A DNA stretch of 63,251 bases from a virus (lineage: Duplodnaviria; Caudoviricetes): positions 1-63,251 of the IMG/VR virus record IMGVR_UViG_3300042569_000591; one strand, 5' to 3'. The position numbers were made by a program, and so were the translations under genes. This document shows, in pieces, positions 44,901-54,767 of the stretch (position 1 is its first letter; each line of letters begins with the position of its first letter). The notes below the pieces were generated by a model, which saw only the letters and a program-made list of their open reading frames with translations, made no database searches and was not told the DNA's origin.

Positions 44901-47900
44901 ATGCCAAACGATAATCTTAAGCAGTACTATTCTTACTTAAAGTCAAGTGGCGCTGATGTAGCTCCTACATATGATGCTTTTGCAACAACTTTAAGCAATG
45001 AAGAAAATGCGAAAAAGTACCACTCATATTTATTAAATAATGGTTTTGACACACCAAAGTCATACGACTCATTTTCTCAGACATTAGGATTAAAAAAAAA
45101 AGATCTTACGGTATCTGGATCGGCAAAACCTTCATCGGTAAAATTATCGACCACAACAACAATAAAGCCTACGGCATCTTCATCTTCAACAGGACTTCCT
45201 GATGGATTATATTCTTTTCCAGGGCAAGAAAATGCTACCTATAAAAAGGAAAAAGGAGATTGGTCTGTAGCATTTGATGGCTCATATAAATACATACCGC
45301 TATACAAAGGTGATGTACAAGCTCGTGTTGCTAACCTTGAAAAGAATGCTGTATCACTTGAACAATATGGTTTTGAAACACAACCTAGAAAAGAAGAGCA
45401 ATTAAAATATACAGAAGCTCCAAAACCAAAGTCAATCGCCAAACCAAAAACTGAAGCACAGAAGAAAGAGCAACAGTTATTTGAAACAGAATTCAAGGCA
45501 TTAGATCTTAATGATCCTGAATACTTGAGAAGAAAAGCTAGATCAGAAAAGATAGATCAATTATTAGCTCCAGTAACCGGAGATTTGATAGATTACAATG
45601 AAGGTAATGTTGTACCTGTCATTGATAATATAATTAAGCAATACCCATACTTAGAAGTATCTGAATCAGGTGTTGGATATGATGAATTAAAAATTCGTAA
45701 TAAAGTTACTGGCGAGAAAGCTGTCATTAATCTAGACAACTGGACTTCTGGAAGAGATGAGGAAGAGGCTAAGCAATTAAGAGCTTTCTTAGATGTTCAA
45801 ATTAACTCAAAAGATTATGTAGCTCAGAAACAGAAAGTAGATGAATTACAGGCTCAAATGCAGGATGCAACACCTACTCAACGTATTGACTTATCACAGC
45901 AATTATTAGAAGAGAAAGCTAAACTTAACGATCTTTCAGGGGCTAGATACAACTACGCAAAGAATGACAAGTATAAAGCTGCTGCTATCTATGATAAGAA
46001 TGCAAAGGATAATATTAAAGTAGATTATGCTAATCTTCAATTAAGATCAATTGACTACGCTGAAAAAGTAAAAAGCTATAATGAGTGGAATCAGACAGTA
46101 AATGATGCTAGAAGTAAAGGCTTGATCACTGAAGAGCAATACAATACAGAATATGCTCCAAAGTTACAGGCTGAGAAGAACATGTTAAATGATGAGAGAT
46201 TTCAAATCAATGAGTCATTTAATCAGGTAAGAAGTGATAGTACTTCTATTGACAATATAGCAGCAAGTGAGTATGCTATACAAGCGGAGAAAGGCAACGT
46301 TCTTAGTGGAGCAACATACTCATTCTTAGAAGGAGCTGAGAGCTCATTAAGATTTTTATTAGAGACAGGTGACTTTAAAGATGGTGAATTCAAAGGTTTT
46401 TTAACTCAAGCCGCACCTGGATCAATTAGTGATGTATATACTTCAGCTGAAGGAAGAAATGCTTTTGAGCAAATTATATTTGGTCTTGCAAACTCAGGTG
46501 GATCGGCTCTTGTTAGTGCAGCATCTGGATCCACATTATTGGGATTATATGCTTCTTCATATGTCAACATGAAGGACCAAATGAGCACCCCACAATTTAA
46601 GGATGTTCCAGAATACCAGAAAATATTGATGTCTGGTATTTATGGTGCCACTATTGGATATCTTGAAAATAAAGGTATTGGTAAGTGGTTTCAGAAGACA
46701 CCTGCTGGTAAAGGGCTTACTAATTGGATTTTAAAGAAAACAATATCAGAGCTAGGCAAAGATGCAACGGCTGAAACAATTGAGCTTACTATTAAAAAAA
46801 ATCTAGGAGCTGCCATAAAAAATGGCCTTATACAAGTAACAGCATCTGGATTAGTTGAGGGTTCTACCGAACTTGCTCAAGAAGCCACAGATATGGCGTA
46901 CAAAGAGGTATTCAATATAATGTCTGAAAAGAAATACTTTGACAATCCGACATCTTGGACAGATGTTGCTGATCGATTAGGTAAATCTTTTGTACTTGGT
47001 TTTGCTGGAGGTGCTGGAATGCAATCAATTACTCAAGCCACTCAGGTAGGCATGAATGAATTGGATAAAAATCAGATCAACAATATTACTGAACTGATTA
47101 ATAGTCCTGAGTTAAAGGATGTATTTAGACTCAACCTTAAGGATCAAATACTATCTGGCCAAATATCAAAAGAAGAAGCCAAAAGACAGATTCAAAAGAT
47201 AAATGAGATTGAAGGTACTCTTAACAAAATACCTGAAAAAGTAGATAGATTCCAAGCGTTCAAGTTAATCAATGAGCGCGATGCGATACAAAAAGAAATT
47301 GCAGGGAAAGACCCTGCTCTTGTCGCTGCTCAAACAGAGCGCGTCAATGCTATTAATGATGAATTAAAACAATTAAGTTATGCCGTTCAAGAGCAAGCAA
47401 CAAGTGAAGTACCTGTACAGCCAGGAGCCAAAATTGGCGGAGAAGTGGCGCAAGGAAAACCCGAAACAGGACTTAAAGAAACTACCCAAGAAGGTAGCCA
47501 AGCCCAAGAAGTAGAACAAGGTAAGTTTGTTGCAGAGGAAGCAACTCGTTTAGCGCAAGAAAATATAAGTACTGAGCAAAGACAATCTCTTGTAGATAGA
47601 CTTTATGAAGACCCAATTGCTTATGCTAGAGAAAATAATACTCCTGGTTCCCCTTCTGAAAACTTTATAAACTCATTAGAACAACCTATTAATATAGAAA
47701 ATAAATCTACTAAAGAAATAGCCAGCGAACTTAATACTATAGATAATACAGATTTAATAAAACAATTAGGTATAGAATCTAACTGGGATATGACAGCAGA
47801 AGGCGACCTTCTTGCTGGCAATGATCCTGTTTTGGCTTATACACAAAGAAAACTACCTCAATGGAATAGAGAAAGCCAACTAGGTAACATAAATCCTGAG

Positions 47901-50900
47901 TCAGAATTAACTTACGATATAGTTAAGGGAAGATTTGGATCGGTTGATAATAAGAACGTAGTAACTGCTAAAGATGAGAATGGAGTTATTGTAGGGGTTG
48001 TTGAATTGGCTAGTAATGGAGGAATAGAACATATTGCTGTAGCACCCGAATTTAGAAGAAAAGGAGTAGCCAATAAATTAATAGAAGTTTTAAAAGATAA
48101 CAATCCAAACCTTGATCTATCTAAAACAAAATTAAGAAGCAAGGGTTTTGAAAAAGTATTCTCTAACACTATAATTGCTGAAGCATATAAAAAAGCCAAG
48201 CAAGATGGTAGCAATCCAACGCTAGTCAAGGCAGTTGAGGATTCTTTAAGTAATAAAAATTTGGTTAGTAGCCAAAAACAAACTAAATTTGCACAAGATG
48301 AAACAGGAAACATACAACCCGAACGCACCGGAGACGGAAGAGGACGGACTGAGAGCAGGAAATTTACGCCTCTTGAAGGCGCGCCAGCAGTTCCAGGCAT
48401 TAACGGGCCGGACCCACAGCTTGTTGGAGTCGCAGAAAAGTACGCAGCAGACAATGGAATCGAGCTCAAAAGACAGTCAGAGTACGTCGAAGTAGACGAG
48501 CAAAGAGCCAAAAGAATAGCCGACGCTTACGAGCAGATGGCTAATAATCCTCAGGATCCAAAAGTAAAAGAAGCATACCAAGATCTCATAAATCAAACAA
48601 TTGCTCAGTATCAAGCATTAGTTGATGCCGGGTATAAGTTTTGGTTTATGGACCTAAATATTCCAAGCAATGAGGAGTATGCAGCAAGCCCATACAATGC
48701 CTTAAGAGACTTAAGACAGAATAAAGAGATGGGCGTATTCCCAACTACTGATGGATACGGAGAAGGTGACATAACACAAGCGCAGATCGACGCTAACCCA
48801 TTACTAGCTGACACAGGTATCAAATGGCCTGTGGGTGGACTAGATGGAGAAATGAAACCTGTTCTTGCAAATGACTTGTTCAGAGCAGTTCACGATGCAT
48901 TCGGCCATGGTCTTGAGGGTGCTGGGTTTAGAGCAAGAGGCGAAGAGAATGCATGGCAGGCTCACGTCAGATTGTTTACAGGACCTGCAGTCGGAGCTAT
49001 TACTAGTGAGACTAGAGGTCAGAACTCTTGGTTAAATTATGGTCCTTTTGGAGAAACTAATAGAACAGCAAAAGTAGAAGACACTGTATTTGCTGATCAG
49101 AAGATTGGCCTTATGCCTGAGTGGACTTGGTCTGAAGGTCGTGCAGGTGATATGGAGGAAGATATTTTACAAGCAGACACTAAAGATGCTACTAATCTAC
49201 AGAAAGCACTCGATGCTTTAGATAAGATTGAGAAGGATCTTGATAAGTTTGGAAAAGAAACTCTAGGCGTAAACATTCCAGTTGCTTTAGCTAAAACAAT
49301 TGTCAAGGCTGTTAAAGCGCTAGTTAAAGCCGGCGTAACACTTGAGCAAGCGATTAAACAAATTGCCGCTGAATACAATCTATCTGACAGAGATGTAAAA
49401 TCATTACTCACGCCTACGAAAGTATCTGATATTGACGTAAATGAAGTTAGAGCCAAGGCTAGACCTGGTAAACGTATATCAAAAGGATTATCAGTTAAAA
49501 CAGTTGCTGGTAAAAAGGTTATTGAGGAAACTGAAGATTTGTCTATAGAATACGTTAAGAAAAATGCCCCAAAGGCGTTTATTGCTAACGCTAATATTAT
49601 TTCCAAGTATCCACTAGTTGCCGGTAAGAAGAAGTTTAAAACAGCAACGACAGTTGAGCAAGCTCAAGAGATATATGATGTATTTGTTAGAGAAGTAGCT
49701 GATAACCTTAACTACTTAATGGCTGAATTTAAACCAGAGTACAGAGAAATATCAACTCTTTGGTATGATGGAGCTAATGCCATAGCAAATGATTTTGCTG
49801 CACAGTTTGGCGTATCAGCAGAGCAAGCAGCAGGTATTATTGCCGCCATGTCTCCTCAGAAAGACTGGTATCAAAACGTTCGTTTAGCTGAGATGGTATT
49901 GATGGCCTACAAAGATAATCCAGTCATGACTAAAGAAATGGTTGATTATCAGAAGAGTGTAAATGAAAAAGGACTTTACGATGGAGCTGAGTCAGCTGGA
50001 AAGAAATTAAAAAAAGCACAAAAAGAATACAACGAATCTAGAACTAAAGCCAATAAAGAAACTCTAGAAGAGGCTAAAGTTAAAATGCAGGAAGCTATTG
50101 AAAAAGCTGACGCTGTAATAACTATGCTTAATAAGTATATAGGTAAAAAATTAAATGAAGTTCCTGCATTTGTTCAGCCATATATGGTTAGAACATATCA
50201 TGAGGTGAACACAACTAAAGATTACAATATTGTAGCTCCTGATGGTAGCGTTCAAGGCGTCGCTAAAAATAAAGATGGATTAAATGCAAAAATTGCATGG
50301 GGATCTTATGTTGAGATTGGAAAGGCTGTATCAATTAAAAATGACGGTAGCCAGGAAAATATCACAAGATCTTTAGGTGAGATGCATAAGATTAGAAACT
50401 TCTATAACAACATCATTGATCCAATGAGCAAGGACGGTGATGTGACAATGGATACACATGCGATCGCTGCAGCATTGTTACTTCCTGTGTCAGGTAAATC
50501 AATTCAGGTTATTCAAAATTTTGGAGGCAAAGGAACTGCTGCTTCAAATTCATTTGGTATTAAAGGTTTGTATTATGCTTATGCAGATGCATACGCATTA
50601 GCTGCCAAAGAAGCCGGTCTATTACCAAGACAAGTACAAAGTATTACCTGGGAGGCTGTACGCGGTTTATATACAGACACATTTAAAAATAATAAAGCTG
50701 AAGTAGCAAAAATTAATAACATTTGGAAAGACTATCAAGATGGAAAAATTACAATCGATGAAGCAAGAGAACAAGCCAAAGAATCAGCCGGTGGAATCAA
50801 AGATCCAACCTGGGCAGGACCTGTTCAGACAGAGCTTGGAGAAGGCGCTGGGACGCAAGGTGTCGAAGGAAGAGGAGATGGAGATGAACGAGATACTGTC

Positions 50901-53900
50901 GGGGGGACCGATGGAGGAGGAGTTCTAACTGCAGACACTAAAGACAAAACAAACCTAAAGAAAGCCCTTGATGTATTAAACAAAGCTGACGACGACTTAG
51001 CCAAGTTTGGTAGAGAAACACTTGGTATCAATATACCTGTAGCTACAATGAGAGCTATTATTAAGCTTGCTAAAGTATTAGTTAAGACTGGTATAACTCT
51101 ACAAGACGCAATCATTCAAGCTGCTGAGCAGAAAAATGTATCCAAAAAAGATGCATTGAATGCTATTAAGTTTATATCTGAGACAATTAAACAACCAATT
51201 AAAAAAGTTGTTATTAATGAAATGGCAGCACTCAAGTCACAAATTAGACTTGAAGCTAGAGCCGCTCGTGAAGCTAAGGGCGATATAAATGCTAAAAGAA
51301 AAGCACTTGCAGCTGCTATTACCAGTATGGTAAGACAAGGAAAGATTACAGCTCTTCAAGCTAGAAGTATTATTAATAAGGTAAGTAAAGTTAATCTTGA
51401 TAATCCTATAATGGTTGATAGATTGATTAGCTATGCAGAAAGAGTATTTGACAGAGCTGACTACCAAGAGACATTAAGCAAGGCAGCTAAGATCAGAAAG
51501 TCAATCAAAAAAGCCATGAAGTCAAAAGACTTACAGGCTGAGGTTGCTGCCATGGCTAAGAAGTTCTCTAGTGTTGATCCGTTTATGGTTGAGGATATTG
51601 ATCAGTACATTGAGAATGCAGAGAAAGTACTTAATGCTGTTCGTCCTGTCAGAGATACAGATGTATCACTTCGTCAAGCTGTTGACATTGAAGCTATTAG
51701 TGAATACACAACAGCTCAGTTTGAGCGTCAAGAGGCAAATAAAAAAGCTGAATTACTTGCATTAAATAAATATTTAGTAGACTCTGGTATTGTTACTGAA
51801 GACATGACTGCCAAGGAGATCCAAGAGATGATCGACATTATTGCATCTGAAGAGTATGAGGTTGAAAACGCTGATAAGAAATTAAATTTCTTAAAAAATC
51901 GTTTTGAATTTATGGCAGGTGTGATAAAAGAGATGATTGTGAATAACAGAGATATATTTACAGACGAACCACTTGATCTAACTCAAAGCCAAAAAGATTT
52001 AATGAATGAAGTTCTTAAGTTTGACATTGATAAATTATCAGTTAAGCAGGCTGCTCAAGTTCTTGAAGCGATGGATAACTTCATCAACAATGGCATTACT
52101 AGTGGTCTTGAAGCTGTGGTTAAAAATTACATTGGTACAGAGAACGCTAATAAACTAGCCGCATCTGGTCTTAAGTCTAGACCACTTAAGATGTATTGGA
52201 ATAAAGCTGTAGGCCGTTTCTTCGGAGAGCAGTTTGTTTCATTGCCATTGCTCATCGAGAGAATGTTTCCTGGAATGAAAAAAGGTCTTAGATTCATGTC
52301 AGAAATGGGACTTACTGATGTAATCAGAGGAGTTGCTAAAGCTGACAGGGAGCATAAGATGATCGTAAAAGATTATACTAGTCAGGAATTCTCAAAAGGT
52401 AAGGGGTTTATGAAGGCTGAGAATGTATACGAGAGAGGTATGATTGCCTTCTTAAGTAGAAATTTAGCCGGAACCAAAACAGAAATGCGTAACGAATTCT
52501 TACGTCGCATTAAGATGATTGAAGAATCTATCAATGCCTTGATGACCGGATCAGAGACAGAGAGAAAAATGGGTGAAGCTTATCAAAAAGTATATGACAA
52601 GCTAAAAGTAGATAGCCAGGATCTTGACGTCATCAAAGCTAATGCTGAGCAAATGAATCTTGACGCTGTTAATTGGATGACACAACAATGGGCTGAAAAA
52701 TATAGCGACCTATCTGACATTAGTTTGTCTGTATACAACGCAATATTAGGAAGCGACACCAACTATACCCCAGATAGATATAAAGCTCTTGACGAGGCTG
52801 ATATTGAGTTGGATGAAAACTTATTGCAGAAAGGCAGCGCGTTTATGGGTGGTCTTGAGTACACTGACAAGAATAAGTCAGGTGTATTGATAGAGACAAC
52901 TAGACCAAAGGCTTTGCCAAAAGGTCGTTTTGTTAGTCTTGACTTTGACGTCAATAACTTCTCTAGTTTAAAAGGCGCGATGATTGACATTGAAACAGCT
53001 CCGGCTATTCGTCAAGTTGATGGATTTATCAAGTCAGACGGATATAAGAAAATGGTCAATGGTGACGACAGAAAAATTCTTACTCGTCGTATAAATAACT
53101 ATATCATTTCTGTAAAAGGAAAGACTAGCTTCAATCGTGACAGCATGAGATCAGTTGAGCGATTAGCCAACTTCTTAGGTAGTCTTGGTGTTGGTAAAGC
53201 GTTAGGTGGTTTTGACCAAACTATTAAGCAGACTGCTCCGGTTATTATCAACACATTGATTAATGCCGGGCGTTTTGATGGTCTTAATATGGAAATGAAT
53301 GAAGCCATCAACCGATCAGGTATGCCAATTGCAAATCGTGGTATTGAGGCTATATCAGGTGTTGAATCTGTTGACGCGTTGATTGATAAGAAAGGAGCAA
53401 CAGCTGCAGAGATAGCTAAGGCTATTGAGAAAGTCAGTCAAATGTATATGAAGGCTTTGCTATCTAAGCCGGATGTATGGGTTGCTAGATCGTCATTTAT
53501 TTCTTACTATAAGAATTACTTGAAGAACAATGGCATGTCAACTAACATTGACTGGAAATCACATGAGTGGAACCAGGATGCATTAAACTATGCTCAAATG
53601 ATGGTTGACCGTCAGCAAAACATTTCAGATGAAAAGCTAGCCGGTTCATTTATGAGCTCTCCAGATCCATGGAAAAGTGTTACTAGAAAGGTTATGCTTC
53701 CATTTGCTACGTTCATCATTAACCAAAAGAACCGTATGCACAATGACTTTGTAGCTTTATTTGGCAGAGGTGCAGAGACTTCTTTAGAAGATAAAAAGAA
53801 AGCAGCTAGATCATTGATTGGATTAAGTGCTGAGATGTTGGCATATCAAGCTATTGCTTACTTCATCAAGAACCAAATTTATGACAATGTAGCTGCTATG

Positions 53901-54767
53901 ATCACAGGTGAAGATGATGAGGAAGAGAAAAAAGAGCGCTCATTCTTCGGAATCAAGATGACGAATAAGCAATGGAATGCTACTAAGTTCCCTGTCAAGA
54001 GTTTAATATCTGACATTTTATCACCTTTCCCATTATTCGATGACGCAGTAGTACTTGGTTTTGATAAGCTGATGAGTAACTTCCCAATGATATCTGATGA
54101 AGATATTAAGCAAGCTATACAAGATCAAAATGATGCTAGAATGCTAAAGGGTGGTGAGCCTATGGATGCAGAGCAAGAGACTAATTTTGTAAAAGCATTG
54201 AAAAGCAAAAATACATACGCTGTTACATTCCAAAATGAAAGCATAGGCCGTCAGTATGGTGTGCCTGGAATTGCTTTTGATACATACACTGAGCTTGCTG
54301 AAATGTCTAGATTAGCATACACAGGTGAATTCGAAGATGATATGGGGTATGGTCCTAAGCTTAAGCATATTTCAAAGAAAGATCAAGAGATAGTCAAGTG
54401 GACACTATTGCCGATGATGCTATACTCTACAGGATTGGTTCCTAAAGACGCTGGTGTGGTTTCTAGAAAGGTAGTCAATACCGTTAAGAAAAGAGCCATC
54501 AGTGACAATAAGTTTAAGAATGTTGGCTATTTAAAAGATGAACTTGGCCGTAAGCCAAAAGATTGGGAAGAAAGTTTGGTGATGAATACCACCAAGAAGA
54601 TACCTACGCTTGTAGACGCTATTAAATTTGCTGAAAGATTTGGCGGCCTGACAGAAAGCCAGGGCAAAGAATACGCCAAACTTATAGAATTGACAGGTGA
54701 TTACGGTTACATGGACTTGAAGAGAATTCAAGCCAATGAGACCGCTGATCAAATAATAAAGAAGTAA
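44901..54767 (+). CDS. 3288-aa polyvalent ejection protein (GNAT-like, HDxxGH and HhH-glycosylase-like domains)
   Basis: IAVAPEFRRKGVA; FRAVHDAFGH...GEENAW; WYD...AAMSPQ...KIRNFY...TMDTH...QSITW. Confidence 0.85.
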   Translation: MPNDNLKQYYSYLKSSGADVAPTYDAFATTLSNEENAKKYHSYLLNNGFDTPKSYDSFSQTLGLKKKDLTVSGSAKPSSVKLSTTTTIKPTASSSSTGLPDGLYSFPGQENATYKKEKGDWSVAFDGSYKYIPLYKGDVQARVANLEKNAVSLEQYGFETQPRKEEQLKYTEAPKPKSIAKPKTEAQKKEQQLFETEFKALDLNDPEYLRRKARSEKIDQLLAPVTGDLIDYNEGNVVPVIDNIIKQYPYLEVSESGVGYDELKIRNKVTGEKAVINLDNWTSGRDEEEAKQLRAFLDVQINSKDYVAQKQKVDELQAQMQDATPTQRIDLSQQLLEEKAKLNDLSGARYNYAKNDKYKAAAIYDKNAKDNIKVDYANLQLRSIDYAEKVKSYNEWNQTVNDARSKGLITEEQYNTEYAPKLQAEKNMLNDERFQINESFNQVRSDSTSIDNIAASEYAIQAEKGNVLSGATYSFLEGAESSLRFLLETGDFKDGEFKGFLTQAAPGSISDVYTSAEGRNAFEQIIFGLANSGGSALVSAASGSTLLGLYASSYVNMKDQMSTPQFKDVPEYQKILMSGIYGATIGYLENKGIGKWFQKTPAGKGLTNWILKKTISELGKDATAETIELTIKKNLGAAIKNGLIQVTASGLVEGSTELAQEATDMAYKEVFNIMSEKKYFDNPTSWTDVADRLGKSFVLGFAGGAGMQSITQATQVGMNELDKNQINNITELINSPELKDVFRLNLKDQILSGQISKEEAKRQIQKINEIEGTLNKIPEKVDRFQAFKLINERDAIQKEIAGKDPALVAAQTERVNAINDELKQLSYAVQEQATSEVPVQPGAKIGGEVAQGKPETGLKETTQEGSQAQEVEQGKFVAEEATRLAQENISTEQRQSLVDRLYEDPIAYARENNTPGSPSENFINSLEQPINIENKSTKEIASELNTIDNTDLIKQLGIESNWDMTAEGDLLAGNDPVLAYTQRKLPQWNRESQLGNINPESELTYDIVKGRFGSVDNKNVVTAKDENGVIVGVVELASNGGIEHIAVAPEFRRKGVANKLIEVLKDNNPNLDLSKTKLRSKGFEKVFSNTIIAEAYKKAKQDGSNPTLVKAVEDSLSNKNLVSSQKQTKFAQDETGNIQPERTGDGRGRTESRKFTPLEGAPAVPGINGPDPQLVGVAEKYAADNGIELKRQSEYVEVDEQRAKRIADAYEQMANNPQDPKVKEAYQDLINQTIAQYQALVDAGYKFWFMDLNIPSNEEYAASPYNALRDLRQNKEMGVFPTTDGYGEGDITQAQIDANPLLADTGIKWPVGGLDGEMKPVLANDLFRAVHDAFGHGLEGAGFRARGEENAWQAHVRLFTGPAVGAITSETRGQNSWLNYGPFGETNRTAKVEDTVFADQKIGLMPEWTWSEGRAGDMEEDILQADTKDATNLQKALDALDKIEKDLDKFGKETLGVNIPVALAKTIVKAVKALVKAGVTLEQAIKQIAAEYNLSDRDVKSLLTPTKVSDIDVNEVRAKARPGKRISKGLSVKTVAGKKVIEETEDLSIEYVKKNAPKAFIANANIISKYPLVAGKKKFKTATTVEQAQEIYDVFVREVADNLNYLMAEFKPEYREISTLWYDGANAIANDFAAQFGVSAEQAAGIIAAMSPQKDWYQNVRLAEMVLMAYKDNPVMTKEMVDYQKSVNEKGLYDGAESAGKKLKKAQKEYNESRTKANKETLEEAKVKMQEAIEKADAVITMLNKYIGKKLNEVPAFVQPYMVRTYHEVNTTKDYNIVAPDGSVQGVAKNKDGLNAKIAWGSYVEIGKAVSIKNDGSQENITRSLGEMHKIRNFYNNIIDPMSKDGDVTMDTHAIAAALLLPVSGKSIQVIQNFGGKGTAASNSFGIKGLYYAYADAYALAAKEAGLLPRQVQSITWEAVRGLYTDTFKNNKAEVAKINNIWKDYQDGKITIDEAREQAKESAGGIKDPTWAGPVQTELGEGAGTQGVEGRGDGDERDTVGGTDGGGVLTADTKDKTNLKKALDVLNKADDDLAKFGRETLGINIPVATMRAIIKLAKVLVKTGITLQDAIIQAAEQKNVSKKDALNAIKFISETIKQPIKKVVINEMAALKSQIRLEARAAREAKGDINAKRKALAAAITSMVRQGKITALQARSIINKVSKVNLDNPIMVDRLISYAERVFDRADYQETLSKAAKIRKSIKKAMKSKDLQAEVAAMAKKFSSVDPFMVEDIDQYIENAEKVLNAVRPVRDTDVSLRQAVDIEAISEYTTAQFERQEANKKAELLALNKYLVDSGIVTEDMTAKEIQEMIDIIASEEYEVENADKKLNFLKNRFEFMAGVIKEMIVNNRDIFTDEPLDLTQSQKDLMNEVLKFDIDKLSVKQAAQVLEAMDNFINNGITSGLEAVVKNYIGTENANKLAASGLKSRPLKMYWNKAVGRFFGEQFVSLPLLIERMFPGMKKGLRFMSEMGLTDVIRGVAKADREHKMIVKDYTSQEFSKGKGFMKAENVYERGMIAFLSRNLAGTKTEMRNEFLRRIKMIEESINALMTGSETERKMGEAYQKVYDKLKVDSQDLDVIKANAEQMNLDAVNWMTQQWAEKYSDLSDISLSVYNAILGSDTNYTPDRYKALDEADIELDENLLQKGSAFMGGLEYTDKNKSGVLIETTRPKALPKGRFVSLDFDVNNFSSLKGAMIDIETAPAIRQVDGFIKSDGYKKMVNGDDRKILTRRINNYIISVKGKTSFNRDSMRSVERLANFLGSLGVGKALGGFDQTIKQTAPVIINTLINAGRFDGLNMEMNEAINRSGMPIANRGIEAISGVESVDALIDKKGATAAEIAKAIEKVSQMYMKALLSKPDVWVARSSFISYYKNYLKNNGMSTNIDWKSHEWNQDALNYAQMMVDRQQNISDEKLAGSFMSSPDPWKSVTRKVMLPFATFIINQKNRMHNDFVALFGRGAETSLEDKKKAARSLIGLSAEMLAYQAIAYFIKNQIYDNVAAMITGEDDEEEKKERSFFGIKMTNKQWNATKFPVKSLISDILSPFPLFDDAVVLGFDKLMSNFPMISDEDIKQAIQDQNDARMLKGGEPMDAEQETNFVKALKSKNTYAVTFQNESIGRQYGVPGIAFDTYTELAEMSRLAYTGEFEDDMGYGPKLKHISKKDQEIVKWTLLPMMLYSTGLVPKDAGVVSRKVVNTVKKRAISDNKFKNVGYLKDELGRKPKDWEESLVMNTTKKIPTLVDAIKFAERFGGLTESQGKEYAKLIELTGDYGYMDLKRIQANETADQIIKK
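47380..47514 (+). CDS. Nested +1-frame gene, 44-aa basic protein MPFKSKQQVKYLYSQEPKLAEKW...
   Basis: Hand translation; A-rich upstream; resembles the MPFKS type of standalone small phage proteins. Confidence 0.65.
   Translation: MPFKSKQQVKYLYSQEPKLAEKWRKENPKQDLKKLPKKVAKPKK
48298..48495 (+). CDS. Candidate nested +1-frame gene (65 aa) with internal -7 element at 48284-48291
   Basis: TAAATTTG-cacaag-ATG; GC-elevated stretch. Confidence 0.45.
   Translation: MKQETYNPNAPETEEDGLRAGNLRLLKARQQFQALTGRTHSLLESQKSTQQTMESSSKDSQSTSK
49152..51130 (+). repeat. Diverged ~70-codon direct repeat (~49152-49370 and ~50911-51130)
   Basis: ADTKD-TNL-KALD-L-K---DL-KFG-ETLG-NIPVA occurs twice. Confidence 0.85.
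50740..50928 (+). CDS. Candidate nested +1-frame gene (62 aa)
   Basis: ATG start; overlaps a Gly-rich linker; stops at the start of repeat copy 2. Confidence 0.35.
   Translation: MEKLQSMKQENKPKNQPVESKIQPGQDLFRQSLEKALGRKVSKEEEMEMNEILSGGPMEEEF

Follow-up and report, generated by a model that had tools for sequence, protein, structure and literature searches.

A +1 reading frame embedded in a giant phage gene

The stretch of DNA analysed here (the window) is a complete 63,251-bp virus record, IMG/VR IMGVR_UViG_3300042569_000591, in which the structural module is closed by a gene on the + strand (44901-54767) that, from the list of open reading frames (ORFs) and its translation, encodes a 3288-residue multidomain virion protein of the polyvalent type. 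Within this giant gene we studied a small ORF, X2 (48298-48495), of 65 codons plus a stop, which lies on the same strand in frame +1 and wholly inside its host gene, i.e., it has the arrangement of an embedded gene, and which comparison with relatives indicates to be, very probably, a conserved overprinted gene. A reading of the DNA without database searches (the sequence-only reading) had described X2 as opened by TAAATTTG-N6-ATG, and we found exactly this: TAAATTTG occupies 48284-48291 and is followed by CACAAG and then by the ATG at 48298, with 65 codons leading to a stop that ends at 48495; a TTG-extended form of X2 begins at 48289. The same reading had placed X2 exactly between two domains of the giant protein, a GNAT acetyltransferase domain (47898-48122, residues 1000-1074; Pfam Acetyltransf_10, Acetyltransf_1 and Acetyltransf_7, E-values 1e-7 to 7e-6) and a domain of ~259 residues that we refer to as HDAFGH (48363-49139, residues 1155-1413; delimited by alignment and AlphaFold2 (AF2) modelling), which is the predicted partner of X2. 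This placement was right in that X2 begins in the linker but not in that it is strictly between the two, as X2 overlaps residues 1133-1199 of the main frame, i.e., the linker and then 44 codons at the start of HDAFGH. The motif HDAFGH itself (48891-48908, residues 1331-1336, domain residues 177-182) has an invariant H, D, G and second H. The window holds a single copy of X2.

The composition of this stretch is unusual for the gene, as had been claimed: the G+C content (GC) is 0.51–0.53 at 48275-48499 compared with ~0.3–0.4 elsewhere in the gene, GC at third codon positions is 0.45–0.50 compared with 0.285 gene-wide, and T makes up 15% of the stretch compared with 26% gene-wide. Entropies and AF2 models divide X2 into two parts. 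The N-terminal conserved part (48298-48390) consists of the acidic NPNAPETEEDG and the start of a basic amphipathic helix, and overprints the main-frame linker QPERTGDGRGR...; the S/T/Q-rich tail (48391-48495) is free of stops and has a sequence that for the most part follows from the main frame, where the conserved HDAFGH domain begins. X2 has neither a Cys nor a hydrophobic N-terminal leader, and in the AF2 model of X2 on its own an extended acidic stretch leads into a single long helix, with a predicted local distance difference test score (pLDDT) of 90–94 at residues 11–30.

The simplest explanation for such a frame is that it arose by chance from a T-poor, purine-rich linker in an AT-rich gene, and within this one genome there is much to recommend it. 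The alternative frames hold many ORFs of at least 50 residues, and 44% of 2000 gene-wide synonymous shuffles gave a +1 ATG ORF of at least 65 codons (longest such ORF per shuffle: mean 66 codons, standard deviation (sd) 18). The sole unusual feature of the single genome was the local +1 stop-free run of 81 codons, which just 2.9% of the shuffles matched. Judged from this genome alone, X2 is not beyond chance; as judged by sequence comparison with its relatives, it is far beyond it.

Conservation of the X2 frame among relatives

A scan of viral contigs with the GNAT-to-HDAFGH stretch identified 318 relatives, of which the best 80 were used together with two annotated phage records. From these 83 sequences (the window and 82 loci) two without the full segment and eight exact duplicates were dropped to leave 73 distinct loci, with a host-ORF GC ranging from 0.34 to 0.69. 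As the null for both openness and peptide identity, each locus was recoded with synonymous codons taken from its own ORF. In most of the relatives a +1 ATG ORF of 59–68 codons occupies the place of X2, and the encoded peptides have in common the motif [DN]PNxPETEEDGxRAxxLRxLKxR and, after it, a tail rich in S, T, Q and P.

Over alignment columns 16–83 the X2 frame was stop-free in 54 of the 73 loci, compared with 16.2 expected, and in all 22 loci with a GC below 0.45, compared with 0.3 expected; because the loci are related (we estimated ~9 AT-rich and ~19 GC-richer lineages) there are fewer independent events than such counts suggest. Five equally long control windows deeper in the domain were open about as often as expected (observed/expected 4/8.8, 26/19.8, 22/21.7, 7/10.7 and 5/5.0), with only 0–1 of the 22 AT-rich loci open in them. 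The tail considered separately was stop-free in 58 of 73 loci (25.9 expected), including 22 of 22 AT-rich ones (1.0 expected). The place where the frame ends is also conserved: the X2 stop lies 26 or 28 codons past a GPDP anchor in 63 of the 83 rows, and is formed by the main-frame Val codon GTA at column 86 in 54 of the 73 loci and at column 84 in a further 12.

The pattern of variation within codons was likewise shifted. Over columns 16–44 the entropies at the first, second and third main-frame positions (m1, m2 and m3) were 1.16, 0.90 and 1.17, compared with ~0.7, 0.57 and 1.55 in the controls, and at several codons of the N-terminal part m3 was fixed in 65–70 of the 73 loci. At column 36, for example, m3 is G in 69 of 73 loci with a main-frame residue that is just 55% conserved, and at column 27 it is A in 65 of 73 with a main-frame residue that is 26% conserved. 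Over the first 30 codons of X2 the synonymous sites of the main frame are frozen. The most variable position is m1, the wobble position of the +1 frame, a pattern that is the signature of selection on a +1 protein.

Comparison of the +1 peptides with that of the window gave a similar picture, as the loci bearing the motif had identities many sd above the recoding null, e.g., 0.77 against a null of 0.29 (sd 0.06) for L022 and 0.56 against 0.25 (sd 0.04) for L034, which has a GC of 0.65. Most loci without the N-terminal part fell within ~1.5 sd of the null (identity/null 0.29/0.29 for L040, 0.28/0.28 for L057, 0.17/0.18 for L078 and 0.24/0.21 for L067), and two were somewhat above it (0.32/0.23 for L072 and 0.40/0.30 for L043). 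As these loci are near the null at a similar main-frame divergence, shared ancestry is largely excluded as an explanation for the identities of the others.

Start signals were conserved as well. Of the 63 motif-bearing loci, 61 have an in-frame ATG downstream of the preceding +1 stop and ahead of the motif (35.1 expected), and among the 39 loci with a GC of at least 0.45 this ATG is preceded at 4–17 nt by GGAG, GAGG or AGGA in 29 (4.9 expected) and by a 5-mer Shine-Dalgarno sequence in 22 (1.5 expected). X2 thus has translation start signals of its own, the relatives whose hosts rely on Shine-Dalgarno sequences having one ahead of the ATG. No Shine-Dalgarno sequence preceded the X2 ATG in any of the 22 AT-rich loci, which fits a phage whose own genes have A-rich leaders instead: in the window a Shine-Dalgarno sequence precedes just 2 of 23 long genes, and the A content of leaders is 0.45 compared with 0.32.

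To look at the giant gene without a prior choice of site, we scored the use of identical codons at identical residues in 30-codon windows along the full giant genes of five relatives. Synonymous codon identity averaged 0.64 over the gene and reached at least 0.84 in four places only: 47331-47540 (0.87–0.99), 48231-48410 (0.84–0.95), 50631-50900 (0.85–0.93) and 45081-45200 (0.85–0.86). The first three coincide with the ORFs at 47380, 48298 (X2) and 50740 that the sequence-only reading had named.

Peaks of this kind could also reflect a nucleic-acid element, such as an RNA structure, a recombination joint for domain shuffling, or a packaging or regulatory site, and in keeping with this the nucleotide sequence is strongly conserved at a poly-A tract and three domain junctions, with mosaic breakpoints falling at those same junctions. 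Such an element would not be expected to vary in phase with m1 as the most variable position, to avoid stops over 68 codons, to keep an ATG and Shine-Dalgarno sequence, or to retain a peptide motif across GC values of 0.34–0.69 and in proteins outside any overlap (see below); we therefore consider it highly improbable that the constraint at X2 is of this type. The chance ORF, which had been our initial reading from the gene-wide shuffles, was dropped following the openness, start-signal and peptide-identity comparisons, and is the least probable of the explanations that we considered: the frame is open far more often than expected with the controls at expectation, relatives keep its ATG and Shine-Dalgarno sequence, third positions vary less than the main-frame residues of their codons, and the motif recurs in free-standing proteins. 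With a frame that is open and a peptide conserved beyond what the host frame demands, the sequence comparisons point with high confidence to X2 being a conserved overprinted coding gene.

Possible routes to expression of X2

The sequence-only reading had proposed that X2 is separately transcribed from an internal promoter. There is a promoter-like pair, TTTG-N20-TAAATTTG (48260-48291, + strand), ending 6 nt before the ATG, in which both motifs have the right spacing for the Bacteroidota promoter consensus (TTTG at -33 and TAnnTTTG at -7). This two-part pattern was not enriched in the window (4 occurrences compared with 2.66 expected; 27 of 100 shuffles reached 4), and as a feature of the system the promoter did not hold up: TAnnTTTG-N6-ATG is kept in only 5 of the 22 AT-rich relatives, and the GC-richer ones have a Shine-Dalgarno sequence instead, which points to internal translation initiation on the long mRNA. 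A local promoter is possible in this phage, but it is neither a conserved nor a required part of the system. A scan for sigma-70-type promoters and terminators gave counts at the level of shuffled sequence (30 compared with 33.4). The best sigma-70-type match of the region was TTGAAA-16-TATAAT (11 of 12 positions) at 48148-48175, 120 nt before the X2 start.

TANNTTTG is enriched in the window (107 occurrences compared with 71.75 expected, sd 8.68), none of 100 shuffles having reached that number, and the DNA sequencing runs that hold the X2 stretch are from lake and freshwater metagenomes. Together with the scarcity of Shine-Dalgarno sequences and the A-rich leaders this suggests a freshwater host of the Bacteroidota type.

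The +1 frame might also be entered by ribosomal frameshifting from the main frame, giving a truncated polyvalent protein with an alternative C-terminal end. The same gene has a candidate slippage site at a run of ten A's with a conserved -1-frame peptide (see below), and in some loci the +1 ORF extends up to 172 codons upstream. Against this, in many loci (e.g., L027, L041, L080, L006 and L015) a +1 stop lies 0–4 codons before the ATG, too close for a shift to occur between the two, and the ATG and Shine-Dalgarno sequence are conserved. A product of programmed frameshifting would have no start of its own, and X2 has one; a slippery motif at the X2 site was not searched for. Based on these observations we consider frameshifting to be a very unlikely route to the X2 product.

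Association of X2 with the HDAFGH domain

If X2 were the partner of one of the flanking domains it should travel with that domain among phages, and it did so with HDAFGH and not with GNAT. Only 3 of the 80 loci matched from query residue 43 or earlier, so as to cover the whole GNAT stretch (query residues 51–125), and 74 of 80 began at residue 122 or later; upstream of the HDAFGH domain in ten diverse loci we found GNAT in none and DUF7178 in two. The X2 motif was present in 63 of the 73 loci with an HDAFGH domain, the genetic linkage seen in effector-immunity pairs, with the proviso that this figure is a classification and not an independent test, since the hidden Markov model (HMM) of the motif was built from 46 of the same sequences. 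In the ten loci without the N-terminal part homology begins at "PLPGAP", and a search of the contigs of loci without X2 for a second copy found only the tail shadow with stops and, in G003, a degraded N-terminal part with a TGA.

The HDAFGH domain is highly conserved (mean column identity 78% over 61 sequences), and AF2 gave it a confident fold (pLDDT 93, predicted template modelling score (pTM) 0.91). The invariance of residues H, D, H, E and N hints that it is an enzyme. Among its matches in BFVD were only unnamed phage polyvalent proteins. YbeY was obtained as a possible fold relative in a wide VIA-align search and was rejected, as its best Z of 2.5 is not meaningful.

The sequence-only reading took X2 for an immunity or chaperone partner; that it is a partner of the HDAFGH domain is supported, in silico, by our complex predictions. 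X2 and the HDAFGH domain gave a median ipSAE of 0.94 (0.95, 0.94 and 0.93), compared with 0.00 for the best of three controls, a score which is the model's own confidence and derives from alignments that we supplied. The runs agreed in at least 76% of contacts, and the pLDDT of the partner was at least 68. For calibration, the mark for a complex is reached by 58 of 80 solved complexes and by 2 of 110 mismatched pairs, counts that apply here approximately because the alignments were our own. The predicted interface is made up of X2 residues 6–45 and of domain residues 95–111, 126–130, 188–193 and 225–246, with a few in 6–46; residues 188–193 adjoin the HDAFGH motif. Most of these contacts involve residues whose codons lie beyond the overlap, so the prediction cannot be put down to shared DNA. 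Based on these models, X2 probably binds the HDAFGH domain.

X2-type proteins outside the overlap

A profile built from 46 X2 peptides and run against 1.84 billion proteins matched 284 representatives with E-values of 1e-3 or less, 97 of them at 1e-10 or less. Many of the matches are products of 55–66 residues that other pipelines had called as genes. In several longer ones the motif is joined to unrelated and clearly conserved C-terminal domains, of which one type is seen in P0047 and P0150, both from Pseudomonadota metagenome-assembled genomes (MAGs), and another in P0079, P0122, P0125 and P0133. Searches of viral contigs found no match to P0047 and matched P0125 in its motif part alone; an ESM Atlas search with P0125 gave no usable match, and a metagenome scan with alignment A4 chiefly recovered the C-terminal domain alone. 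Motif copies also occur in tandem, several of them in a 302-residue ORF of an uncultured bacterium contig (L104) and two in P0005.

The P0047 gene is an intact X2-type gene of 135 residues with a new C-terminal domain (Pseudomonadota MAG, L097 7901-8408). Its neighbours include a Toprim/DUF3987 primase (P4-like), a SocA/Panacea antitoxin and a type I restriction R subunit, as found in a mobile or defence island. At this locus the former HDAFGH frame is recognisable for ~43 residues and then meets two stops, with the small frame remaining intact, and the same truncated shadow of the HDAFGH frame is present in an Akkermansiaceae MAG. Because a broken shadow of the domain persists there, the P0047 gene derives from the overlap, and on this sequence evidence P0047-type loci are natural cases in which only the +1 frame has survived.

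These proteins bear on whether X2, if a real overprinted gene, might act on another target altogether, e.g., as a host-directed or anti-defence factor for which the linker merely tolerates a second frame. In bacterial MAGs and metagenomes there are proteins that begin with the motif and continue into unrelated C-terminal domains, the P0047 gene sits in a mobile or defence island, and free-standing motif proteins are found in genomes without an intact HDAFGH domain (G007 and G008; 4 of 8 loci), which fit an antidote and equally fit another target. In addition, a comparison of interface divergence where X2 has been lost gave no signal, the interface residues (0.73 to 0.67) having diverged no further than the rest of the domain (0.80 to 0.76). 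On the other hand, such an explanation leaves aside the complex prediction with its null controls, the association of the motif with the domain whatever lies upstream, and the origin of the P0047 gene in the overlap that its domain shadow reveals. We regard another target as unlikely, while giving it far more weight than the chance, nucleic-acid and frameshift explanations.

The giant gene and its other overprinted frames

Upstream of the giant gene are the terminase large subunit (23294), the portal (25513) and then several virion proteins. The giant ORFs of the relatives encode 3128–3484 residues; a megablast search of the giant gene against phage records found zero matches. With GNAT, DUF7178 and HDAFGH domains and a repeated module in 3288 residues encoded beside virion genes, the protein has the make-up of a polyvalent protein, and the BFVD relatives of its HDAFGH domain bear the names polyvalent or ART-PolyVal. 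DUF7178 was found by Pfam downstream of GNAT. The repeated module of ~70 residues (ADTKD...L.KALD...FG.ETLG.NIPV...) was spotted by eye in the translation, and is present twice, after the HDAFGH domain (~49260-49480, residues ~1455–1525) and after the ORF X3 (~50850-51070, residues ~1985–2055).

The sequence-only reading had linked X2 with the ORFs at 47380 and 50740, and both proved to be conserved overprinted ORFs like X2 based on frame identity and synonymous constraint. The first, X1 (47380-47514, + strand, frame +1), encodes 44 residues, begins MPFKSKQQVKYLY... and lies in the linker before GNAT. In 15 loci its +1 identity to the window was 0.58–0.98, always higher than that of the main frame (0.36–0.80) and of the null (0.27–0.44), and its synonymous identity was 0.87–0.99. 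Contigs of four sequencing runs match the window exactly from the X1 ATG (47380) onwards and have unlike sequence upstream of it. X1 had a weak match to phrog_1375 (E-value 0.019) and matched 30 unnamed small-protein clusters in the ESM Atlas, where DUF3008 (0.85) is a mere lead; a word-based homolog search found 10 close relatives only. The second, X3 (50740-50928, + strand, frame +1), encodes 62 residues; it begins within the conserved C-terminal end of the DUF7178 region and crosses the linker that follows. With a synonymous identity of 0.85–0.93, it is conserved in four of seven loci (L008, L004, L063 and L024) and absent or broken in the others (L072, L068 and L045). In L063 (3795-4106) X3 and X2 motifs are fused in a single +1 ORF of 104 residues. 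Searches of Pfam, PHROGs and NCBIfam with X1, X2 and X3 found no families beyond phrog_1375 for X1 and a stray NCBIfam row (E-value 0.083).

The fourth peak of synonymous constraint (0.85–0.86) lies in an S/T-rich linker of the main frame and coincides with a run of ten A's (45092-45101, main-frame KKK) followed by a 33-codon peptide in the -1 (+2) frame, the whole spanning 45092-45202 on the + strand. The run is kept in all four relatives that have the region, and the -1-frame peptide is conserved. From its sequence this looks like a transcriptional-slippage or -1 frameshift site, which would give a short product of ~100 residues.

Discussion

Our favoured interpretation is that X2 is a genuine +1 gene that overprints the linker and the beginning of HDAFGH, and is likely the cognate partner of the HDAFGH domain; we would put the probability of this at roughly 0.6. 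Several points weigh against it, in addition to the single-genome shuffles, the relatedness of the loci and the nature of the complex score mentioned above. The main frame largely accounts for the sequence of the X2 tail, and this shadow is matched by the profile even in loci without the gene. The domain can exist alone, as it does in the 10 of 73 loci without the N-terminal part, and the interface comparison and the motif proteins in genomes without an intact domain count here too. The HDAFGH domain had no match in Pfam (LPD families included, E-value 0.1 or less) or NCBIfam, nothing below an E-value of 0.6 in a PDB sequence profile search, and nothing at 0.001 or less in a Foldseek search of the PDB. 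Finally, 24 sequencing runs hold the X2 stretch or part of it and one of these is recorded as RNA (share 0.05), the RNA-labelled runs being contigs with small shares in which a transcript start cannot show.

As we picture it, ribosomes would start X2 internally on the late mRNA that carries the giant gene, using in this phage, in place of a Shine-Dalgarno sequence, an A-rich leader. The product would be a protein of ~65 residues with an extended acidic motif and then a long basic amphipathic helix, and in the models motif and helix dock on the HDAFGH domain mostly at residues encoded outside the overlap. In the producing cell X2 might then act like an immunity protein or antitoxin, holding or silencing this enzyme-like effector domain until it is packaged, and bacteria and mobile elements might keep orphan X2-type copies as antidotes against the injected domain. 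That X2 is an inhibitor rather than a chaperone or a protein with some other role is a tentative suggestion, which we hold with less than even confidence. A wider reading, which extends the idea of effector domains with overprinted partner genes, would see a second, concealed coding layer in the giant polyvalent effector genes of tailed phages and would have X1, X2 and X3, at successive junctions, as cognate antidotes or holders of their neighbouring effector domains, each effector-plus-partner module being shuffled as one piece of DNA, with bacteria and mobile elements having captured freed antidotes (of the P0047 type) to disarm injected effectors; we consider this rather doubtful as a whole.

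Polyvalent proteins are among the largest and least understood of phage weapons, both in how phages tolerate making them and in how their domains are exchanged. If our interpretation is correct, a partner gene written over the very effector that it is predicted to bind would give a mechanism both for this tolerance and for the exchange of domains as working units, would bring to light a class of small proteins that the rules of gene callers exclude, and would make a captured antidote a possible bacterial counter-measure. As a specific, predicted binder X2 would also give a handle on the very conserved HDAFGH domain, and its +1 ATG could be destroyed without altering the main-frame protein.

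Comparison with known systems

The closest parallel to X2 is the Rz/Rz1 spanin pair of lambdoid phages, in which the +1 frame of Rz, read on the same strand, contains Rz1, and the two proteins bind each other. Like Rz1, X2 is a small, fully embedded +1 gene, and its pairing with the product of the host gene is predicted. A signal sequence and a lipobox Cys mark Rz1 as a lipoprotein, and X2 differs from it in having neither Cys nor hydrophobic leader. It also differs in its setting, as the host gene encodes a 3288-residue virion effector protein with no part in lysis, and holds three such ORFs.

There is a likeness too to effector-immunity and toxin-antitoxin pairs, in that X2 is a small predicted binder of an enzyme-like conflict domain with which it moves in shuffling, and X2-type orphans in bacterial or mobile islands recall the orphan immunity genes of polymorphic toxin systems. 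We found zero relation in sequence or fold between X2 and known immunity or antitoxin families, and, unlike the genes of such pairs, X2 is written out of frame over the coding sequence of the putative effector and is not an adjacent gene.

The giant protein itself resembles the polyvalent proteins described by Iyer et al. 2017 (PMC5512222), being a giant multidomain protein, encoded beside virion genes, with GNAT and uncharacterised domains; these proteins were proposed there to be delivered with the DNA and processed into units. The words "overlapping" and "frameshift" do not appear in PMC5512222, and we found no report of overprinted genes in polyvalent proteins in the literature searched, which was a limited library. 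Overprinted genes of small viruses such as phiX174 (reviews: PMC8227390, PMC6195259) similarly encode two proteins in different frames of one DNA stretch, with one frame constrained chiefly where the other is a tolerant linker. Unlike these, X2 resides in a large tailed-phage genome that has no obvious need of compression, belongs to an arrangement repeated at successive domain junctions, and specifies a product that is predicted to interact with that of the gene over which it is written.

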